Part shown: piece by piece, positions 22,782 to 55,102 of the stretch | Numbering within the stretch: the stretch's first letter is position 1 | How the letters are laid out: each line of letters starts with the position of its first letter | Source: Patescibacteria group bacterium | GTDB lineage: Bacteria; Patescibacteriota; Minisyncoccia; Phycocordibacterales; EsbW-18 | Length of the DNA: 63,149 nucleotides | NCBI GenBank assembly: GCA_038064475.1 | Contig: JBBTTA010000007.1 | Coordinates: forward strand, 1 to 63,149 | Direction: 5' to 3' | The notes under the pieces: generated by a model | What the model was told of the DNA's origin: nothing | Database searches by the model: none | The model's input: only the letters and a program-made list of their open reading frames with translations | Translations under genes and position numbers: made by a program

Positions 22782-22787
22782 TAAGAA

Positions 22788-22811
22788 AACAGAGAACAGA
22801 GAACAGAGAAC
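22788..22811 (+). repeat. (AACAGAG)x3 microsatellite-like word array
   Basis: Three perfect 7-nt units plus AAC begin 7 nt after the stop codon. The same word recurs at 29199-29210 and 33704-33712. Confidence 0.9.
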
Positions 22812-22833
22812 AAATCCGCCAGCTGGCGGACAG

Positions 22834-25421: not shown

Positions 25422-25479
25422 ACGCGGATCCGCCAACTGGCGGATCGCGGAACGTACGCGGACAGACGCGGAAAAGAAG

Positions 25480-25515
25480 AAAGGCCCCCTTCGCCAGCTG
25501 GCGAAGGGGGCCTTT
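25480..25515. terminator. Bidirectional GC-rich terminator
   Basis: AAAGGCCCCCTTCGCCAGCTGGCGAAGGGGGCCTTTT sits between rpsJ and the convergent ORF 25534..25818. Confidence 0.85.
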
Positions 25516-25533
25516 TGCTCTTGTTGTCAGAGA

Positions 25534-25818
25534 TCAAAAACTGATAGGAGGGATGGTCTGTTGTGCACGAACTCCGCGACCGATCTGGATACCGATTTTG
25601 ATGTATGAACCGATTCGTCGATCTTTTTCTCGCGAAAGTTCACGGTTGCCGAACGTTTGCATCAAGCGTACTTCTTCCGGATCGAGCTGCAGTTGAACTT
25701 CTTCAACTCTGAGATCTTGAGGAAGAGCGGCTTTACGCTGTTTAAAACCCTCTGCACTTGGGGAAGCAATGAATCCGGCAACTTCACCGTTGGAGTGGAA
25801 CACTAAACCAAATTTCAT
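25534..25818 (-). CDS. Hypothetical 94-aa protein (SD-led cassette)
   Basis: AGGAGGTTTAA-ATG on the reverse strand. Ends at the bidirectional terminator. No family recognised. Confidence 0.65.
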   Translation of the reverse strand: MKFGLVFHSNGEVAGFIASPSAEGFKQRKAALPQDLRVEEVQLQLDPEEVRLMQTFGNRELSREKDRRIGSYIKIGIQIGRGVRAQQTIPPISF

Positions 25819-25966
25819 TTAAACCTCCTGATTTTGCACTTTGTGTACTGAATCTGGAATGACTATACGTGCGGGGGATTGTCAATGTTCAAAGGGTGTG
25901 GTAGAGTCCTCAGTCGCGCGTTCTTTCGGGGAATACTCCCCACAAATCACACGGAGGAGAAGCACG

Positions 25967-26206
25967 ATGTCCTTTGCTCAAGCGATACCGCAAGAGGAGA
26001 GTGCCCGTTGTCGTGTGACAGTGCAGGAGGATGACCCTATCAGAGGATACACCCTCCTTCAGACCGGCTGCGGCATGAAGGACATGCTCCTTCGCAAGAA
26101 CCCCCAGAAAAAGTGCGGCAACTGCAGGAAGCCCCTCGAATTTCCGGAAGACCTCTCCACGAGATCTTTCGGAGGCAGCGCGATACGGCTCGTTGCCGTT
26201 GCCTAA
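25967..26206 (+). CDS. Hypothetical 79-aa protein with CxxC (zinc-ribbon-like) (SD-led cassette)
   Basis: An internal ATG of track ORF 25841..26206 is preceded by ACGGAGGAGAAGCACG. Promoter TTGTCA-17-TAGAGT lies upstream. Contains the motif CGNC. Confidence 0.6.
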   Translation: MSFAQAIPQEESARCRVTVQEDDPIRGYTLLQTGCGMKDMLLRKNPQKKCGNCRKPLEFPEDLSTRSFGGSAIRLVAVA

Positions 26207-26212
26207 TCGTTC

Positions 26213-26247
26213 AACCCCACTTGGAAGCGAAGCTTCCAAGTGGGGTT
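26213..26247 (+). repeat. Palindromic hairpin, copy 1 of a 25-nt repeat
   Basis: The core CACTTGGAAGCGAAGCTTCCAAGTG (26218-26242) is identical to 54954-54978. It acts as the stem-loop after ORF 25967..26206. Confidence 0.85.
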
Positions 26248-26259
26248 TCCTTATACCTC

Positions 26260-26287
26260 TTGCAGAAAAAAATTGCTCGTGTATAGT
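26260..26287 (+). promoter_or_regulatory. Sigma70-type promoter re-initiating the rplC unit
   Basis: TTGCAG, a 16-nt spacer, then TATAGT. Confidence 0.6.
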
Positions 26288-26305
26288 GTCTTCTACTTGC
26301 GCCAT

Positions 26306-26378
26306 GTCCCGCCCTCTCGGAGAGGGCGGGACCTCTGGACACCAATGAGCCCCAGCTCGGACGTGTCCGAGCTGGGGC
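26306..26378 (+). promoter_or_regulatory. Two GC-rich hairpins in the rplC leader (candidate leader or sRNA)
   Basis: GTCCCGCCCTCTC-GGA-GAGGGCGGGAC (26306-26332) and GCCCCAGCTCGGAC-GT-GTCCGAGCTGGGGC (26349-26378). Confidence 0.5.
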
Positions 26379-26400
26379 ATCAATGTAAAAATAAGCACCA

Positions 26401-26510
26401 AACACGAAGCACGAAACTCGAAACAATATCAAAATCCAAATATCAAATTTCAAAACATTTGAATTTTGGTCATTCGGATTTGTTTCGGATTTCGATATTC
26501 GGATTTCGAA
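26401..26510 (+). repeat. About 110-nt intergenic repeat element, copy 1 (upstream of rplC)
   Basis: Starts AACACGAAGCAC and ends with TTCGGATTTCGATATTCGGATTTCGA, which is 26 nt identical to 36246-36271. Tandem TTCGGATTTCGA units face degenerate inverted copies. Confidence 0.85.
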
Positions 26511-28340: not shown

Positions 28341-29192
28341 ATGAAACATCACAAACCTACAAGCGCAGGACGTCGTGACTCGGTAAGCATCAACTACCGC
28401 GAGTTTTTGACACCAAACATAAAGCCAACGAAGGCACTCGTAAAAGGAGGCAAGCGAAGCACAGGCCGCAACGCATTCGGCCGTCTCACGACACGCTCGA
28501 CTGGTGGAGGACACAAGCGTCGCTTCCGTGATGTTGACTTCATGTACGACAAACGCGACATCAAGGCGCGCGTTGAAAGTGTTGAGTACGATCCAAACCG
28601 ATCAGGTTTCATCGCACTTGTTCTCTACGCTGATGGTGAACGCCGTTATATTCTCGCTCCACAATCTTTGAAAGTTGGGGACTCAGTTATCACATCAGAG
28701 AATGCAGCGTTTACTCCGGGTAACCGTCTTCCCCTCGCAAAGATTCCTGTTGGTACATTTGTATACAACATTGAGCTCAAACCAAAGGGTGGTGCAAAAG
28801 TCGCACGCTCTGCCGGCAATTATGCTGAAGTTGTTGCGCACGACGGTGACTACACACTCGTAAAGATGCCATCAACTGAAATTCGTAAGTTCTCAGAACA
28901 CGCATGGGCATCTATTGGTGAAGTTTCAAATCCAGAAGCAAAGCTCGTAAACCTCGGTAAGGCAGGACGCTCACGATGGCTCGGTATCCGTCCAAAGGTT
29001 CGTGGTACAGCGATGAACCCAGTTGATCACCCACATGGTGGTGGTGAAGGACGTCAGGGCCGTGGTCACCGTCGCGCACGCACACGTCACGGTAAGAACA
29101 CAGGAAAGGGGCACAAGACACGCAAACCAAAGAAATACTCAAACTTCCTTATTGTTTCTCGCCGAAAAGTTGGCAAGAACCGCAAGAGTTAG
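28341..29192 (+). CDS. rplB: 50S ribosomal protein L2
   Basis: KPTSAGRR..VEYDPNRSGFIALV..RGTAMNPVDHPHGGGEGR. Confidence 0.97.
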   Translation: MKHHKPTSAGRRDSVSINYREFLTPNIKPTKALVKGGKRSTGRNAFGRLTTRSTGGGHKRRFRDVDFMYDKRDIKARVESVEYDPNRSGFIALVLYADGERRYILAPQSLKVGDSVITSENAAFTPGNRLPLAKIPVGTFVYNIELKPKGGAKVARSAGNYAEVVAHDGDYTLVKMPSTEIRKFSEHAWASIGEVSNPEAKLVNLGKAGRSRWLGIRPKVRGTAMNPVDHPHGGGEGRQGRGHRRARTRHGKNTGKGHKTRKPKKYSNFLIVSRRKVGKNRKS

Positions 29193-29218
29193 AAAACACA
29201 GAACAGAGAACAAAAAAC

Positions 29219-29284
29219 ATTCGATTTGCCAGTTGGTGAATCGAATATACGTACCATCATTCCTACGCCTGTAGGAATGATGGT
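29219..29284 (+). terminator. Two consecutive hairpins ending the rplC-rplB unit
   Basis: ATTCGATTTGCCAGTTGGTGAATCGAAT (29219-29246) and ACCATCATTCCTAC-GCCT-GTAGGAATGATGGT (29253-29284), followed by CGTTTAT. Confidence 0.65.
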
Positions 29285-29323
29285 CGTTTATACATACTTT
29301 TTCATTAGAAAATCAACCAAATG

Positions 29324-29355
29324 AAAAAGGCGCCGTTAGGTATGCGGCGCCTTTT
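29324..29355. terminator. Bidirectional terminator
   Basis: AAAAAGGCGCCG..CGGCGCCTTTT. It serves minus-strand ORF 29382..29564. Confidence 0.8.
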
Positions 29356-29381
29356 GAACTGCAGTACTGCGCGGGGCTTCT

Positions 29382-29564
29382 TCAGGTCGAAATGGGGAAG
29401 AGCGCGATGGCTGTCAGGCTGAGCAACAGCCTTTGCCCCTGGAATCTCCCTTCGAGCGGCTTCACCTCCACGATCTTGGAGGTGGCGGAAGGCTGGACGT
29501 GGGCTCGGCACGATCCGAGAAAGGCTGCTTCCACTCGGTATTGCCCCTTTTTGATACTGTCCAT
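29382..29564 (-). CDS. Hypothetical 60-aa protein (SD-led cassette)
   Basis: TTGGAGGGCCCGTCAG-ATG on the reverse strand. Upstream promoter TTGCCA-16-TACAAT. G/C-rich third positions. Chosen over the overlapping track ORF 29305..29580, which runs through the terminator. Confidence 0.55.
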   Translation of the reverse strand: MDSIKKGQYRVEAAFLGSCRAHVQPSATSKIVEVKPLEGRFQGQRLLLSLTAIALFPIST

Positions 29565-29713
29565 CTGACGGGCCCTCCAACAGTCAACCCCCCGAATTGG
29601 GAGTATGGCTTACATAGGAAAACCGCATTAACGAACTTCTAAAATGGATTGTACGCTGATATAAAAATTTGGCAAGGGGAAGTGGATAAATGAGCCCACA
29701 GCACGAGGCTCGT

Positions 29714-29741
29714 TTGACAATGCTCTACTTTTTGCTATTAT
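29714..29741 (+). promoter_or_regulatory. Sigma70-type promoter re-initiating the rpsS unit
   Basis: TTGACA, a 16-nt spacer, then TATTAT. Confidence 0.7.
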
Positions 29742-29748
29742 CTTATCC

Positions 29749-29768
29749 GAGCCGAACGGCTCCTTTTT
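29749..29768 (+). promoter_or_regulatory. Promoter-proximal terminator-like hairpin
   Basis: GAGCC-GAAC-GGCTC followed by CTTTTT, 8 nt after the -10 element. Confidence 0.5.
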
Positions 29769-29782
29769 AGTCCGTCTCCATG

Positions 29783-29907
29783 ATCCCGTTAGAGATGTTA
29801 AAGTCTCAAAACGGGGTATAAAGATGAAATAAAGGTTTTTGAAATGCTGTAAAGGTATTTTGGAATAATCACGGAAACGCAAAGCGTTTCCTGTCTCTAA
29901 CGGGATG
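29783..29907 (+). promoter_or_regulatory. Structured leader element, copy A (sequesters the rpsS start codon)
   Basis: ATCCCGTTAGAGA (29783-29795) is complementary to TCTCTAACGGGAT (29894-29906), which contains the AT of the ATG. Competing local hairpin CCCGTT..AACGGG (29785-29815). Hairpin GGAAACGC-AAA-GCGTTTCC (29873-29891). The paralogue is at 48983-49105. Confidence 0.7.
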
Positions 29908-33121: not shown

Positions 33122-33688
33122 ATGAAAACGGTAAAAGAAAAACAGAGCAAGGCATACGAGAACCTTCACGAGGCACTCGGCACAAAGAGCAAAATGGCAA
33201 TCCCACGTTTGGTGAAGGTGGTTGTGTCTGTTGGTACGGGTTCAGTGAAGGACAAAAAGCGCATTGAAGTGATTGAATCACGCCTTCCAAAAATCACAGG
33301 ACAGAAAGCATCTCCACGTCCTGCAAAGAAATCAATCGCATCATTCAAACTCCGCGAAGGACAGGTGATTGGCTACCAAGTAACGCTCCGTGGCCCACGC
33401 ATGTACGATTTCCTTGATCGTCTTATCAACATCTCACTTCCTCGCACACGTGACTTCCGTGGTATCTCACGCGCATCGATTGATCCAATGGGGAACCTCT
33501 CAATTGGTATCCGTGAACACAACATTTTTCCAGAAACAGCTGACGAAGACACAAAGGACGTATTCAGCCTTTCAATCACGATTGTTACAACAGCAAAGGA
33601 CAGGGTATCAGCAGAAAAATATTTCGAATACATTGGCATTCCATTCAAGCGACTCGAAGACGAAGTGAAGAAGAAACGAGGACGTTAA
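33122..33688 (+). CDS. rplE: 50S ribosomal protein L5
   Basis: IPRLVKVVVSVG.G..KLREGQVIGYQVTLRG.RMYDFLDRLI..LPR.RDFRG. Internal ATG of track ORF 33032. Confidence 0.95.
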   Translation: MKTVKEKQSKAYENLHEALGTKSKMAIPRLVKVVVSVGTGSVKDKKRIEVIESRLPKITGQKASPRPAKKSIASFKLREGQVIGYQVTLRGPRMYDFLDRLINISLPRTRDFRGISRASIDPMGNLSIGIREHNIFPETADEDTKDVFSLSITIVTTAKDRVSAEKYFEYIGIPFKRLEDEVKKKRGR

Positions 33689-33724
33689 GGCACATAACAA
33701 AAAACAGAGAACAGGAAAACAAAA

Positions 33725-33751
33725 AACATGCGATATATCGCATGTTTTTTT
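33725..33751 (+). terminator. Intrinsic terminator ending the rpsS-rplE unit
   Basis: AACATGCGATATATCGCATGTT followed by TTTTT. A second palindrome GTTCGATATATCGAAC follows. Confidence 0.8.
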
Positions 33752-33813
33752 GTTCGATATATCGAACATGTGCACTTTATATTTTCTTGAGCACGAATAT
33801 GTACACTCATGTA

Positions 33814-34206
33814 ATGGAAAAAGATTTTGGTGGTTGGAATGAAAGGAAAAAACTTTTACAGGCAAGAACAATACCACAATTTGTACATGAAAGAGAAATA
33901 TGGTGGTGTTCGTTTGGCATGAATATTGGTGATGAAGAAGATGGAAAGAATAACTTATTTGAAAGGCCGGCACTTGTTATAAGAAAGTTTAATAGGAGTG
34001 TTGTTTTAGTTGCCCCACTGACTACGAAAGCAAAAAGCAGCCCATATTATTTTTGTTTTACGCACGACAACACAACCTTTGCTGTTATTCTTTCGCAATT
34101 GCGTCTTGTAAGCACAAGGCGACTTAATCGGAGGATTAGAAAAATAAACTCGACTCTTTTTAGCGAGATAAAAAAGAAAATTATAGACGTTGTAATTACC
34201 CCCTAA
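33814..34206 (+). CDS. PemK/MazF-family toxin-like protein (orphan)
   Basis: EKDFGGWNERKK..REIWWCSFGMNIGDEEDGK...RPALVIRKFN..VVLVAPLTTK resembles solitary PemK/MazF-like proteins. Visibly A/T-rich. The start is uncertain (33799 or 33814). Confidence 0.65.
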   Translation: MEKDFGGWNERKKLLQARTIPQFVHEREIWWCSFGMNIGDEEDGKNNLFERPALVIRKFNRSVVLVAPLTTKAKSSPYYFCFTHDNTTFAVILSQLRLVSTRRLNRRIRKINSTLFSEIKKKIIDVVITP

Positions 34207-34421
34207 TAACAAACGATCCCCGCCTTATGGCGGGGTCTCCGGGGCCATGTGGCCATTTGTACTAATATACTAACACTTTCAAAACATGATGCAAGCTACG
34301 TATTGATTAAAAATTAATCTCTGCGTAAAACAATGCTGGAAATGCGTTCTGACTCCATGACGCTATTTACTGGAACTACCGATTCGGTTGAATACTATTC
34401 AACAGGCGCATTATGGAACTA

Positions 34422-34449
34422 TTGACATTATAATATAAAAGTGTATAAT
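34422..34449 (+). promoter_or_regulatory. Near-consensus sigma70 promoter
   Basis: TTGACA, a 16-nt spacer, then TATAAT. Confidence 0.75.
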
Positions 34450-34482
34450 ACACGCATACGTTCTTTCACAAGGAATTGCAAA

Positions 34483-34534
34483 ATTGACCGTGGCTTTGAG
34501 ATCTTTTTATTGAGATTTCACAACCGCGGTCAAT
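34483..34534 (+). promoter_or_regulatory. 11-bp inverted repeat in the 5' leader of ORF 34581
   Basis: ATTGACCGTGG (34483-34493) pairs with CCGCGGTCAAT (34524-34534), with one mismatch. The inner sequence has TGAGAT direct repeats. Confidence 0.5.
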
Positions 34535-34580
34535 TGAGACTTGCGGAATGCTCCGGGCAACGAAGCCCAAGGAGAACACC

Positions 34581-35180
34581 ATGAGTTGGATGACCAAGGA
34601 TTGGACGCAGGGCGAGCTGAATGCGCTGGTGAAGAAGATCGGCGGCGAGGAAGTCGCTCGCGGCGTCCTCAACGACAGCCTTCTCTTCAAGATCGAGAAG
34701 TCGACGGTTCCGCCTCTTCTCGACGTCATCGGTACTCACCTCGTGTTGGCGACCACCTCGCCGATTTTCGGGATCGAGAAGTTCAAGCTGAAGAAGGACG
34801 GGGGAATCTGCTCCTACCTCGGCGACAATTTCCGCTCCTGGTTCCTCGGAAAGACCGAGGACCCCAAGAGCGAGACCACGCTCCGCTCCGCCAGACTCAC
34901 AAGGAACTCGCCCGACAAGCCAATCCTCGAGACGCTCGGCGACAAGGCGGAGACCAGTCTCGCGGAGATGTTCGCGATGATGGAAGTGCAGGCTGATGGT
35001 AAGGGGGGCAACCTCCTCGTCAACGGCTACGCCAACATCTTCTACGTGAAGGACTCCACCGGCATGCTTCGCGCGGTCTACGCGCACTGGTTCGGCGTGG
35101 GCTGGGGCGTGCACGCGGGCTCCGTCGGGGGCCCGAGCGGGTGGCGCGACGGCGGTCGGGTCTTCTCTCGCAATTCCTGA
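34581..35180 (+). CDS. Hypothetical 199-aa protein, strongly G/C-rich at third positions (SD-led cassette)
   Basis: CAAGGAGAACACC-ATG inside track ORF 34548..35180. Codon usage is unlike that of neighbouring r-protein genes. No family recognised. Confidence 0.7.
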   Translation: MSWMTKDWTQGELNALVKKIGGEEVARGVLNDSLLFKIEKSTVPPLLDVIGTHLVLATTSPIFGIEKFKLKKDGGICSYLGDNFRSWFLGKTEDPKSETTLRSARLTRNSPDKPILETLGDKAETSLAEMFAMMEVQADGKGGNLLVNGYANIFYVKDSTGMLRAVYAHWFGVGWGVHAGSVGGPSGWRDGGRVFSRNS

Positions 35181-35221
35181 GGAACTAAGGCATCTTCAAG
35201 ACCCTTTGATTCTCAAACTCT

Positions 35222-35261
35222 CTGGCCCTTCGAACGCTTTCGCGTTTGAGGGGCCAGTTTT
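35222..35261 (+). terminator. Intrinsic terminator
   Basis: CTGGCCCTTCGAACGC-TTTC-GCGTTTGAGGGGCCAG followed by TTTT. Confidence 0.8.
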
Positions 35262-35326
35262 CATTTATGAACATATCAGGGACTTTTACGGAAAGGGAAT
35301 ACGATGAAGCTCAAGAACAAGCTCTT

Positions 35327-35355
35327 TTGACAAAGGACCAAGTATTTGCTATACT
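35327..35355 (+). promoter_or_regulatory. Sigma70-type promoter re-initiating the rpsN unit
   Basis: TTGACA, a 17-nt spacer, then TATACT. Confidence 0.75.
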
Positions 35356-35362
35356 CCTCGTA

Positions 35363-35382
35363 GCTCTCAGGAGCGCTTTTTT
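35363..35382 (+). promoter_or_regulatory. Promoter-proximal hairpin plus U-tract
   Basis: GCTC-TCAG-GAGC followed by GCTTTTTT, 8 nt after the -10 element. Confidence 0.45.
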
Positions 35383-35481
35383 ATCCAGCACTTAGTTTGG
35401 CATTGTCTTTCCCGGTTGCGGTTTGACCACAAAACGTGGTTAAAAAAGACAGATGCAACTATGCCAAACTAAGTGCTGGAT
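35383..35481 (+). promoter_or_regulatory. Long structured leader upstream of rpsN-rpsH
   Basis: A perfect 21-bp inverted repeat, ATCCAGCACTTAGTTTGGCAT / ATGCCAAACTAAGTGCTGGAT, encloses inner helices TGTCTTT/AAAGACA and ACCAC/GTGGT. It ends 13 nt before the ATG. Confidence 0.7.
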
Positions 35482-35494
35482 TTATCGAAATACC

Positions 35495-35764
35495 ATGGCT
35501 CGCAAAGCAATCATCGCAAGAGACAAGAAGCGAAAAGTAATGATTGAGCGTGCGAAAGACAAGCGGGAGGCCCTCAAAATGGCCCACGACTACGAAAAAT
35601 TGCAGTCGTTGCGCAAAAACGCATCTCCAGTCCGCACTAAGAATCGTTGCTTTAAATGTGGTCGTCCACGTGCATACATGCGCGATTTTGGATTGTGCCG
35701 CATCTGTTTCCGCGAACTCGCGAACAAAGGTATGATTCCAGGTGTTAAGAAGTCATCATGGTAA
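35495..35764 (+). CDS. rpsN: 30S ribosomal protein S14 (89 aa, retains CxxC..CxxC)
   Basis: [13 protein letters not shown]...[23 protein letters not shown]. Internal ATG of track ORF 35453. Confidence 0.95.
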
Positions 35765-37198: not shown

Positions 37199-37891
37199 AT
37201 GACGGACGAAACAAACACAAAAATAAACGAAGGAGACGAAACAATTCCGCCTGCGGAAGGTGTTGACGTGCCTGTTGAGGCCGTTGCTGCCGTTGCTGCT
37301 GTTGTGGCAGAAGTTTCCGCACCACGCGAAGAGGAAGCCCCTCGTGGCCGTGGACGTTTCTCAAAGAATCCTCGTCGTGCATCTCGTTCACGTCCTGAAC
37401 GCGTGAAGCCAGAATTCGACAGCCGTATCATCGACATTCGTCGTGTGACACGTGTGGTTGCTGGTGGTCGCCGTTTTAGCTTCAGTGTCTGTGTTGTTGC
37501 GGGTAACCGCCGTGGTTCAGTTGGGGTTGGTATGGGAAAGGCAGGTGACACAGCACTCGCTGTGGAAAAGGCATACCGCACCGCACTCAAGCATAGGGTG
37601 ACGGTCCCTCTTACAAAGGACGGAACAATTGCTCACGAAGTGAAAGCAAAGTACTCAAGCGGTATTGTCTTCATCTACCCAGCAATCGGACGCGGAGTTG
37701 TTGCCGGAGGTGCAGTGCGTGACGTGCTTGAGCTTGCCGGCATGCACAACATCGGTGCAAAGATTCTCTCACCATCAAAAAACAAATTGAATATTGCACA
37801 AGCAGCGATTAAGGCATTGAGCATGGCTCGTCCTGCAAAAGAAAACAAGCGCGACACCAATACACGAATGAAAACGAATGACACGAATTAA
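37199..37891 (+). CDS. rpsE: 30S ribosomal protein S5 with N- and C-terminal extensions
   Basis: IIDIRRVTRVVAGGRRFSFSVCVVAGN..G.VG.G.GKA. The C-terminal tail is encoded by ACGAATG-type word repeats. Confidence 0.95.
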   Translation: MTDETNTKINEGDETIPPAEGVDVPVEAVAAVAAVVAEVSAPREEEAPRGRGRFSKNPRRASRSRPERVKPEFDSRIIDIRRVTRVVAGGRRFSFSVCVVAGNRRGSVGVGMGKAGDTALAVEKAYRTALKHRVTVPLTKDGTIAHEVKAKYSSGIVFIYPAIGRGVVAGGAVRDVLELAGMHNIGAKILSPSKNKLNIAQAAIKALSMARPAKENKRDTNTRMKTNDTN

Positions 37892-37927
37892 AACATCAAA
37901 CTTTCAAACTTCTAACTAATACCTACC

Positions 37928-38356
37928 ATGCAGCTACACGAACTCAAACGAACAACAAAGAATCGATCAAAGAAGCGCGTCGGACGTGGTGGTAAGCGCG
38001 GTAAGACATCAGGACGTGGTCACAAGGGGCAGAAGGCACGTTCAGGTCACCGCATTCGTCCAGAAATCCGCGATATGATTAAGAAGATTCCAAAGCAACG
38101 TGGATACGGTAAACACCGTGCAACAAGCGTTCGTGGCGACCGCATTCCACAGGTTGTCATCAACATCGGCACAATCGACAAATACTTTGCTGACGGCGCA
38201 GTTATTTCTCCAGCAACACTCCATGAGAAAGGACTCATTAAGATGCGCACAGGTAAGTTGCCAAGCGTAAAGATTCTTGGTAAAGGAAAACTCACAAAAA
38301 AGGTAACATATGAGGGGGTGAAGCTCTCAGGAAAAGTAAGCGGAGCAACAAAATAA
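37928..38356 (+). CDS. rplO: 50S ribosomal protein L15
   Basis: MQLHELK....RSKKRVGRGG..GKTSGRGHKGQKARSG. Confidence 0.97.
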   Translation: MQLHELKRTTKNRSKKRVGRGGKRGKTSGRGHKGQKARSGHRIRPEIRDMIKKIPKQRGYGKHRATSVRGDRIPQVVINIGTIDKYFADGAVISPATLHEKGLIKMRTGKLPSVKILGKGKLTKKVTYEGVKLSGKVSGATK

Positions 38357-54946: not shown

Positions 54947-54985
54947 AGTCCCTCACTTGGAAGCGAAGCTTCCAAGTGAGGGACT
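54947..54985. repeat. Palindromic hairpin, copy 2 of the 25-nt repeat (18-bp perfect stem)
   Basis: AGTCCCTCACTTGGAAGC-GAA-GCTTCCAAGTGAGGGACT. The core is identical to 26218-26242. Confidence 0.85.
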
Positions 54986-55028
54986 CCGTGCGACGCTCAG
55001 CGTCGCACGGAATAACTGCAAACGTCCG

Positions 55029-55102
55029 TCCGCCCCCTTGGAATCGAACCAAGAACCGCCGAGGTATAAGCTCGGTGCTCTAACCAATTGAGCTAGGGGC
55101 GG
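55029..55102 (-). tRNA. tRNA-Ile (anticodon UAU)
   Basis: Reverse-strand 74-nt cloverleaf with acceptor CCGCCCC/GGGGCGG, D-arm GCTCAATTGGTTAGAGC, anticodon stem CCGAG/CTCGG with loop CTTATAC, and T-loop GGTTCGATTCC. Confidence 0.85.

Follow-up and report, generated by a model that had tools for sequence, protein, structure and literature searches.

What divides rplE from rpsN in this spc operon, and how did it come to lie there? We analysed a 63-kb segment of a Patescibacteria (Paceibacteria-type) chromosome that includes the S10–spc cluster (hereafter, the window). In it, the gene for ribosomal protein L5, rplE (33122–33688, plus strand), and the gene for S14 in its 89-aa form, rpsN (35495–35764, plus strand), both identified from open reading frames (ORFs) and their translations, are separated by a 1.8-kb island at 33689–35494 that carries a mazF/pemK-like toxin gene and a gene for a 199-aa protein. 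As the last base of rplE is 33688 and the first of rpsN is 35495, the island coordinates given by a first-pass annotation of this DNA are exact, and all the features that it described are present where it placed them. Comparison loci that we fetched are labelled L001–L105, and homologous proteins carry P numbers.

The nearest L5 among species-representative genomes is 69% identical and belongs to 'Candidatus Paceibacterota'. The organism is also present in Hainich H41 groundwater assemblies. An identical L5 protein is encoded on 17 public contigs, and every contig that extends past rplE (5 of the 6 loci shown) has the same genes downstream of it. The window corresponds to the terminal 63 kb of one of these contigs, which is 323,904 bp long. 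Single contigs from the runs of three studies cross the island borders with no differences and even depth, and the island is 100% identical among contigs from at least five samples. Identical independent assemblies and flat depth rule out the assembly chimera that the first-pass annotation had considered. No homolog of MazF or of the 199-aa protein follows rplE in any of the 35 Patescibacteria loci fetched, so neither gene is universal at this junction there. These comparisons support the island being a genuine, lineage-specific insertion.

The 199-aa protein belongs to a family of retroelement targets

The gene for the 199-aa protein (34581–35180, plus strand) had been labelled an ORFan, a label that did not survive wider searching. 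A protein search returned at least 157 close homologs, all of those with an organism name coming from Patescibacteria lineages, and a profile search of 1.84 billion cluster representatives matched 3,694 clusters at E ≤ 1e-3 and 1,018 at E ≤ 1e-30. No Pfam, NCBIfam, PHROG or PADLOC model matched the protein, a Pfam Ydr279_N match (E 0.047) having been dismissed as noise. Two longer proteins, P0361 (926 aa) and P0362 (379 aa), contain two to five tandem copies of the domain.

The second-closest homolog, P0003 in L001 (70% identity; the closest on a long contig), adjoins genes for a bAvd protein and an RVT_1 reverse transcriptase (RT), and the last 122 nt of its gene recur 454 nt downstream. Between the copies there are 19 mismatches, all of them at adenines of the downstream copy and none at any other base, which is the defining signature of the variable region (VR) and template repeat (TR) of a diversity-generating retroelement (DGR). 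P0060 in L092 also lies with an RT and a VR/TR pair with adenine-only mismatches; the pairs of L092 and of two JGI contigs, L098 and L100, each show 17 mismatches at adenine sites and none elsewhere. P0004 in L091 has no RT within 6 kb, and, at all but two of the non-adenine sites, its VR matches the TR of L001, from the same assembly. Across 60 family members, the hypervariable alignment columns coincide with TR codons that contain an adenine: mean entropy was 2.49 bits there, compared with 0.50 bits elsewhere (p = 2e-6).

The island VR, delimited by alignment with family TRs, spans 35067–35170 on the plus strand, with hypervariable codons at 35079–35156 (residues 167–192). Its adenine substitutions were tested against heterologous family TRs only: it differs from three of them at 21–23 of 26–28 adenine sites and at 5–10 of 76–78 others (Fisher p ≤ 3e-10). 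The scaffold residues LRAV.V.W...GW.V.A.SV..P..W..G..VFSRNS are all intact. Together with homologs that have VR/TR pairs, Avd and RT, these patterns show the second island gene to be a predicted DGR variable protein from a very large Patescibacteria family. Toxin families and DGR-target families are both known, and the island adds a member to each rather than a new kind of system.

The gene lies within a cassette whose start (34416–34580, plus strand) was defined by consensus scoring, folding and alignment with L104, the locus of the closest homolog (L104 520–1152; 65% identity; its VR is without the conserved scaffold tryptophans). The first-pass annotation had reported a near-consensus promoter, a Shine–Dalgarno sequence (SD) and a terminator around the ORF. 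All three were found, and the promoter, TTGACA-16-TATAAT at 34422–34449, in fact matches the consensus at 12 of 12 positions. It precedes a 5′ untranslated region (5′ UTR) of ~125 nt (34455–34580) with a predicted folding energy of -51 kcal/mol (z = -4.9) and an SD, AAGGAG, at 34569–34574. The end of the cassette (35171–35267, plus strand; alignment of four loci and folding) comprises a sequence like the initiation-of-mutagenic-homing (IMH) element, CAATTCCTGAGGAACT (35171–35186), which is conserved in four VRs (window, L001, L091 and L104) and replaced in TRs, and a terminator-like hairpin at 35222–35257 with a 16-bp stem, a 4-nt loop and a T-tract running to 35267 (z = -5.4). One compensatory change, A-T to T-A, occurs in this hairpin among the same four loci.

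Homology with L104 begins at the promoter (~34416) and ends just past the hairpin and T-tract (~35270). In the printed alignment the 5′ UTRs are ~93% identical, above the identity of the ORFs, and the changes in their stems are wobble-compatible. With L001, the SD and the hairpin mark the ends of the homology, and one stem pair is compensatory. These limits define the cassette as promoter, structured leader, ORF, IMH-like sequence and hairpin. It stands alone in L104, between an SLT-domain gene and rpmE; the homolog in L001 adjoins the DGR. No Rfam family reached its gathering score in the window, leaving this leader, the rpsN leader and the mazF 3′ element described below unmatched; the E-value mode gave spurious miRNA-type hairpin matches only.

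An AlphaFold2 model built with 60 homologs had a mean predicted local distance difference test score of 86.7, with block means mostly >90 (81–98) over residues 41–199. Foldseek searches with this model in the PDB and BFVD gave no match below E 0.4 (best E about 0.5–1) and only weak matches to C-type-lectin-like domains (CTLD; template-modelling score up to 0.39), and a sequence-profile search of the PDB gave none. By eye, no signal peptide or hydrophobic segment is obvious, in agreement with reports on DGR targets of candidate phyla radiation (CPR) bacteria (PMC8144416). The protein would be expected to bind a ligand, by analogy with other variable proteins. A family of >3,600 clusters with a confidently predicted fold unlike anything solved is a lead in its own right.

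A resident retroelement with an unrelated template

Where, then, is the template for the island gene? Permissive-score blastn, and tblastn with the RT and Avd of L001, found no TR, RT or Avd in the window. A search with the L001 RT found an RT, P0132, on the same 323,904-bp contig, ~95 kb from the island, and there was no cognate TR within 17 kb around it. This resident DGR (target, TR, bAvd and RT; L094 6459–9041) lies between prfA and rpsB. Its target (L094 6459–7121) ends in ...CRFLAVR, and its TR is at about L094 7475–7600. The resident TR/VR pair is canonical, with one extra codon in the VR relative to the TR, and shows no resemblance to the island VR. Within 4.5 kb of L094, three positions vary between two Hainich samples; two of them fall in the local VR at TR adenines, with GGC/GAC and GTC/GAC where the TR has AAC and GAC. 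To judge from these variants, the resident DGR seems to have been active recently.

The TR inferred for the island VR begins CTTCGCGCGGTCAACGCGAACTGGAACGAC..., and the template can be written CTTCGCGCGGTCAACGCGAACTGGAACGACGA.GGCTGGAACGTGAACGCGAACTCCGTCGAGAACCCGAACAGGTGGAACGACGGCAATCGGRTCTTCTCTCG. A degenerate VR/TR pattern had no match in GTDB representative genomes and IMG/VR; in metagenome contigs it matched five loci, one of them the island VR itself (L099), and no cognate TR. From four runs, we aligned contigs to the VR at 80% likeness and to a family TR (that of L100) at 85%, which returned many TR- or VR-like contigs, from other organisms. The 272-nt TR-like contig of X5 (depth 56, compared with 50 for the genome) was rejected as the cognate TR because of non-adenine differences and downstream divergence, and run X7, in which the genome has a depth of 11, contained a single TR-like contig, at depth 3. 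The island VR shows no differences among the contig consensus sequences of at least five samples. Because no cognate TR was found in the 80 kb read or among the metagenome contigs, the resident TR is unrelated and the island VR is invariant, the island gene is probably an orphaned DGR target with a variable region that is currently static.

High GC content at third codon positions is a trait of the targets

In the first-pass annotation, the opposite compositional bias of the two island genes pointed to at least two independent acquisitions. The contrast in G+C content at third codon positions (GC3) is real: 0.30 for mazF and 0.86 for the variable-protein ORF, the highest of the window ORFs, compared with about 0.42 (host genes, about 0.33–0.53). 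As a sign of foreign origin it fails for the variable protein, because high GC3 is found in all nine family members considered, on contigs of 36–52% GC (targets 0.64–0.88, neighbours 0.14–0.62), and in the unrelated target of the resident DGR (0.83), which stands beside a host-like RT and Avd (0.41–0.44) in the same genome. We therefore rejected horizontal gene transfer as an inference from GC3. The high-GC3 targets are those at window 34581–35180, L001 6001–6552, L002 155–748, L091 6001–6690, L092 6001–6714, L093 5737–6444 and L094 6459–7121, and those of L097, L098 and L100. The excess spans the whole gene, and the lower-GC3 neighbours include the adjoining RT and Avd genes. High GC3 is a trait of all DGR target genes examined and not evidence of foreign origin; composition can mislead, in that a genome of intermediate GC content can contain a GC3-rich gene that is a DGR target and not foreign. 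The literature searched offered no explanation for the whole-gene excess, which may be a requirement or a by-product of mutagenic retrohoming.

High GC3 also generates long antisense ORFs, which public pipelines call at both target loci: the Hainich and Logan gene calls have minus-strand ORFs at window 34530–35114 and at L094 6375–7019. At the island, the called ORF (194 aa; in L004, L006 and L007) takes the place of the variable protein. We rejected it as a real gene and attribute it to the high GC3: it has no family support, and promoter, SD, terminator and thousands of homologs all speak for the plus-strand ORF. Wrong-strand calling of DGR targets is likely to be a systematic effect of very high GC3, by which such targets would be systematically missed in annotation.

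The mazF module

The other island gene (33814–34206, plus strand) encodes a 130-aa homolog of PemK/MazF-family endoribonuclease toxins; public pipelines start this ORF at 33742 (154 aa). Residues 27–126 match PF02452 (PemK_toxin; E 2e-13) and the PHROG family 'MazF-like growth inhibitor' matches at E 2.6e-15; the NCBIfam MazF score, 22 bits, is far under the cutoff of 120. We found 526 homologs, the nearest 66–68% identical, and all matches with an organism name are from Patescibacteria lineages. By family membership, the protein is a predicted PemK/MazF toxin with putative toxicity and endoribonuclease activity. Like type II MazF/PemK toxins, it has the PemK_toxin domain over the whole protein and a typical length (127–130 aa). 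Unlike MazEF and PemIK, it lacks an adjacent antitoxin gene, as does its homolog in L105. The description of the gene as an orphan thus stands: there is no antitoxin ORF on either side, the nearby ORFs being spurious (20–37 aa), and upstream there are just 125 nt, occupied by palindromes.

These are the terminator and twin palindromes that had been noticed after rplE, two palindromes at 33721–33768 found by inspection of the sequence and sharing the core CGATATATCG. The first (33721–33750) is a perfect 30-nt palindrome that would form a bidirectional terminator-like hairpin with a 13-bp stem after rplE, and the second (33751–33768) overlaps a weak promoter-like site (33754–33783) before mazF. 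The 10-mer CGATATATCG occurs twice in 63 kb, both times in the palindromes, compared with 0.01 expected, and the pair are candidate operator sites.

Directly 3′ of mazF lies a 59-nt two-hairpin element (34206–34264, plus strand), whose outer helix, ACRAA/UUUGU, surrounds a GC hairpin of variable loop and a second hairpin, GGCC-N4-GGCC. It is kept at the DNA level in all four family loci examined (window; L102 2933–2991; L103 2887–2946; L105 2885–2940), and a covariance model of it (R1) matched only after mazF within 518 kb of loci. No Rfam family matches the element, and a scan of IMG/VR for the motif gave no matches. To our knowledge, a structured element after the stop codon is no feature of described mazEF loci, and this conserved, RNA-like element behind solo mazF genes is a second lead.

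The homologs in L102, L103 and L105 are 59–67% identical to the window's protein and never have the variable protein alongside. The gene lies between murA and def in L102, between dnaK and dnaJ in L103 (1950–3000) and before secE-nusG-rplK in L105 (2400–3260). Solo homologs therefore occur elsewhere, too, within or next to housekeeping operons (L103 and L105). The L105 gene, like the window's, has no upstream ORF; those of L102 and L103 have small, unrelated ones. The orphan arrangement seems typical of this MazF subfamily. Homology among these four loci sets the borders of the module at 33689 and about 34265, and ~150 nt of unrelated spacer separate it from the variable-protein cassette. As each module occurs without the other elsewhere (the variable protein alone in L104 and beside a DGR in L001, mazF alone in L102, L103 and L105), these distributions support an island made of two independently distributed modules. 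The earlier proposal of two independent acquisitions is supported to that extent; its compositional argument is not.

A pre-existing boundary at the rplE–rpsN junction

Why were two modules tolerated inside a ribosomal protein operon? A promoter and leader hairpin precede rpsN at 35327–35494 (plus strand), as judged from consensus scoring, folding and relatives. The promoter, TTGACA-17-TATACT with an extended TG (35327–35355), matches the consensus at 11 of 12 positions. The hairpin (35383–35481) contains a perfect 21-nt inverted repeat (35383–35403 and 35461–35481), has a predicted energy of -59.9 kcal/mol (z = -7.1) and ends 14 nt before the rpsN ATG. The first-pass annotation called this promoter and structured leader new; both exist, but they are not new, since similar sites occur in relatives without the insert. 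A promoter-like site, TTGAC(A/T)-16/17-TA(G/A)NAT, precedes rpsN in ~10 of the ~17 closest Paceibacteria, insertion-free ones included, and is found even where just 70–150 nt part rplE and rpsN; after it come a small hairpin and a U-rich stretch. Promoter-like sites with at least 10 of 12 matches precede 6 of 29 rpsN genes, compared with 0–2 for the other ribosomal protein genes tested. On the evidence of these relatives, the rpsN promoter is ancestral in Paceibacteria and not island cargo, and the 100-nt leader hairpin of the window is an enlarged form of the hairpin of its relatives. The transcription-unit boundary would then be older than the island, which would explain why insertions are tolerated.

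Across most of the bacteria fetched, no more than ~120 nt lie between the L5 stop codon and the start of S14; many of the ~25 closest Paceibacteria differ. After L5, L014 has 2.3 kb with a major facilitator superfamily (MFS) transporter (L014 4932–6140), L016 (Nomurabacteria) a HicB/HicA toxin–antitoxin pair (L016 4634–5102), L022, L023, L024 and L035 0.75–1.4 kb of hypothetical genes, L017 and L020 glycosyltransferases, L028 the L10/L12 genes (rplJ-rplL) in place of rpsN (L028 4945–5941), and L027 and L033 unrelated genes. These loci show the rplE–rpsN junction to be a recurrent insertion site in Paceibacteria, in which an interrupted spc cluster is common; the junction may serve as a safe harbour for cargo. 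Like the other insertions, the island occupies this site with small accessory cargo and keeps the rpsN promoter downstream; the cargo is different in each lineage, and none of the others carries MazF or the variable protein. Accessory genes are thus tolerated at this boundary within a gene cluster that is widely used for phylogeny and binning.

Origin of the island and competing explanations

The account that we favour is one in which two unrelated, self-contained cargo modules would have entered an existing boundary, between the rplE terminator and the rpsN promoter. In Paceibacteria this boundary appears to accept insertions repeatedly, as they would disrupt nothing essential there. Module 1 (33689 to about 34265) would consist of a solo toxin gene with palindromes at its promoter and a 59-nt 3′ element, and module 2 (about 34416–35270) would be a complete expression cassette for a DGR variable protein. 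Approximately 26 C-terminal codons of that protein would have been written by adenine-specific mutagenic retrohoming from an AAC-rich TR. The resident DGR, ~95 kb away on the same chromosome, would diversify its own neighbouring target with an unrelated template. The island copy is most likely orphaned, its VR fixed, and its own strong promoter is predicted to yield just one ligand-binding variant. The only RNA runs with any match, two from wastewater, shared 5% of words and came from a different organism, so they were set aside.

Several observations weigh against an orphaned, static target. The search for a TR spans 63 + 17 kb of the genome, and a second TR is possible elsewhere. The island VR has lost none of its scaffold residues and keeps its IMH-like sequence and hairpin, as a target in active service would; its closest homolog, the L104 copy, which looks like the decay of another orphaned target, has lost the scaffold tryptophans, and the island VR has not. 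The invariance of the island VR comes from consensus contigs, which mask minority variants, and its contrast with the resident VR amounts to two positions in one contig at a coverage of 5. The hairpin lies 51 nt beyond the TR homology with a sense loop, TTTC, unlike the GRNA of phage DGRs (PMC3240598), and it may be only a terminator. An intact scaffold, IMH-like sequence and hairpin would suit an active remote target, for which the resident RT and Avd or a second RT would still rewrite 35079–35156 from a second, matching TR in a part of the genome that was not read. In favour of such a target, the genome has its own DGR RT and Avd, apparently active of late; for some DGRs, targets are documented at distances of >100 kb (PMC5758913); and P0004, with no RT within 6 kb, fits the L001 TR at all but two non-adenine sites. 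However, no cognate TR was present in the 80 kb read or among family-type TR contigs at the depth of the genome; TRs normally adjoin the RT, and the resident one is unrelated; and the VR is identical in all assemblies, which cover several years and studies. We consider an active remote target unlikely, and retain the orphaned copy as the explanation of the island gene.

Two recent foreign acquisitions, one of lower and one of higher GC content, that brought a new rpsN promoter and broke a continuous operon would account for the GC3 contrast, for modules found separately elsewhere and for the absence of both genes from the junction in every relative fetched. Such an origin is nevertheless improbable: GC3 richness is common to all targets of two DGR families whatever the GC content of the host, both gene families appear to be specific to Patescibacteria, and a promoter and hairpin leader before rpsN in insert-free relatives imply an operon that was already split. 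The adjacency and common orientation of the two genes, the lack of an antitoxin and the presence of other family members beside an NYN RNase gene (P0005) or near HigB (L092) could instead suggest that MazF and the variable protein are one functional unit, with a hypervariable sensor or regulator as the missing antitoxin. Each module, however, is equipped with a promoter and terminator of its own, the two are never together in the other loci seen and ~150 nt of unrelated spacer part them, which makes a single unit very improbable. In another form, the variable protein might control MazF on binding a variable ligand, for example a component of a phage or host cell, or, more modestly, the 59-nt element might be an RNA antitoxin or regulator. 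We regard this as highly speculative and improbable too, although a sensor–effector pair or an RNA-partnered PemK-fold toxin would, if true, represent toxin control of a new type for Patescibacteria. Hardly credible is an artefact, either a chimeric assembly or a real gene in the antisense 194-aa ORF: public gene calls do list the minus-strand ORF, but separate assemblies agree exactly and their depth is flat, a consensus promoter, an SD and a terminator accompany the plus-strand ORF, which also has thousands of homologs that share conserved motifs, and a GC3 of 0.86 leads one to expect long antisense ORFs.

Comparison with described DGR targets

CPR DGR targets are usually without recognisable domains (PMC8144416). 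The island protein resembles these targets (DGR clade 2; Roux et al. 2021, PMC8144416) in its small size, its lack of a recognisable domain and its C-terminal VR, in which the variable codons correspond to AAC codons of a TR. The VR is flanked, as theirs are, by constant GC-rich sequence, an IMH-like motif and an inverted repeat, and homologs of the protein are encoded directly beside Avd, TR and RT. The island gene differs from them in having no cognate TR or RT in the 80 kb read, in a VR that is invariant across samples, and in its stand-alone cassette, with its own consensus promoter and conserved leader, within the S10–spc cluster.

Non-adjacent and remote targets are known for DGRs, some >100 kb away, and the documented ones match the TR of the DGR that serves them (PMC5758913). 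At ~95 kb from the RT and Avd of its genome, the island gene is like the remote targets of Treponema denticola and Legionella (Wu et al. 2018, PMC5758913). Unlike these, which show only A-to-N differences from the TR of their DGR, it has a VR to which the resident TR is unrelated. With Mtd of Bordetella phage BPP-1 and other C-type-lectin-fold targets it shares a C-terminal VR followed by an IMH-like sequence and a hairpin with a 4-nt loop, and possibly the display of a ligand-binding surface. Foldseek and profile searches in the PDB and BFVD gave no match to Mtd, TvpA or other targets of this fold beyond the weak CTLD matches. The island hairpin is longer (16 bp) than the Mtd type and more distant from the VR, and on the sense strand its loop departs from GRNA (PMC3240598). 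DGR target genes can, it appears, exist as template-free cassettes of promoter, conserved leader, ORF, IMH-like sequence and hairpin, and detached cassettes of this kind bear on how DGR targets spread and on how often 'hypervariable' proteins are frozen.

Other interruptions and neighbouring features

The first-pass annotation described the cluster as broken into promoter-defined units, and the gap between rplB and rpsS (29193–29904) fits this description, with a bidirectional terminator at about 29325–29356 and, before rpsS, a promoter with 11 of 12 matches and a TG (29714–29741). The same gap contains a minus-strand 60-aa ORF with GGAGG and a GC3 of 0.74 (29382–29564). The gap between rpsJ and rplC (25422–26510) contains a strong bidirectional terminator (25479–25516), followed by a minus-strand 94-aa ORF with an SD (25534–25818) and a GC-rich plus-strand ORF of 79 aa (25967–26206), neither of which matches Pfam. 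A palindromic terminator (26215–26245), of which there is a copy at 54951–54981, and two GC hairpins then precede rplC.

Three genes have an A-rich motif (ACAGAGAACA repeats) after their stop codons, at 22784–22812, 29191–29219 and 33685–33713; two of these sites, after rplB and after rplE, are points at which the cluster is interrupted. The gene for L30, rpmD, is absent between rpsE and rplO (37891–37928), an absence known for CPR bacteria. Farther downstream, a tRNA-Ile gene with the anticodon TAT lies on the minus strand at 55028–55102.

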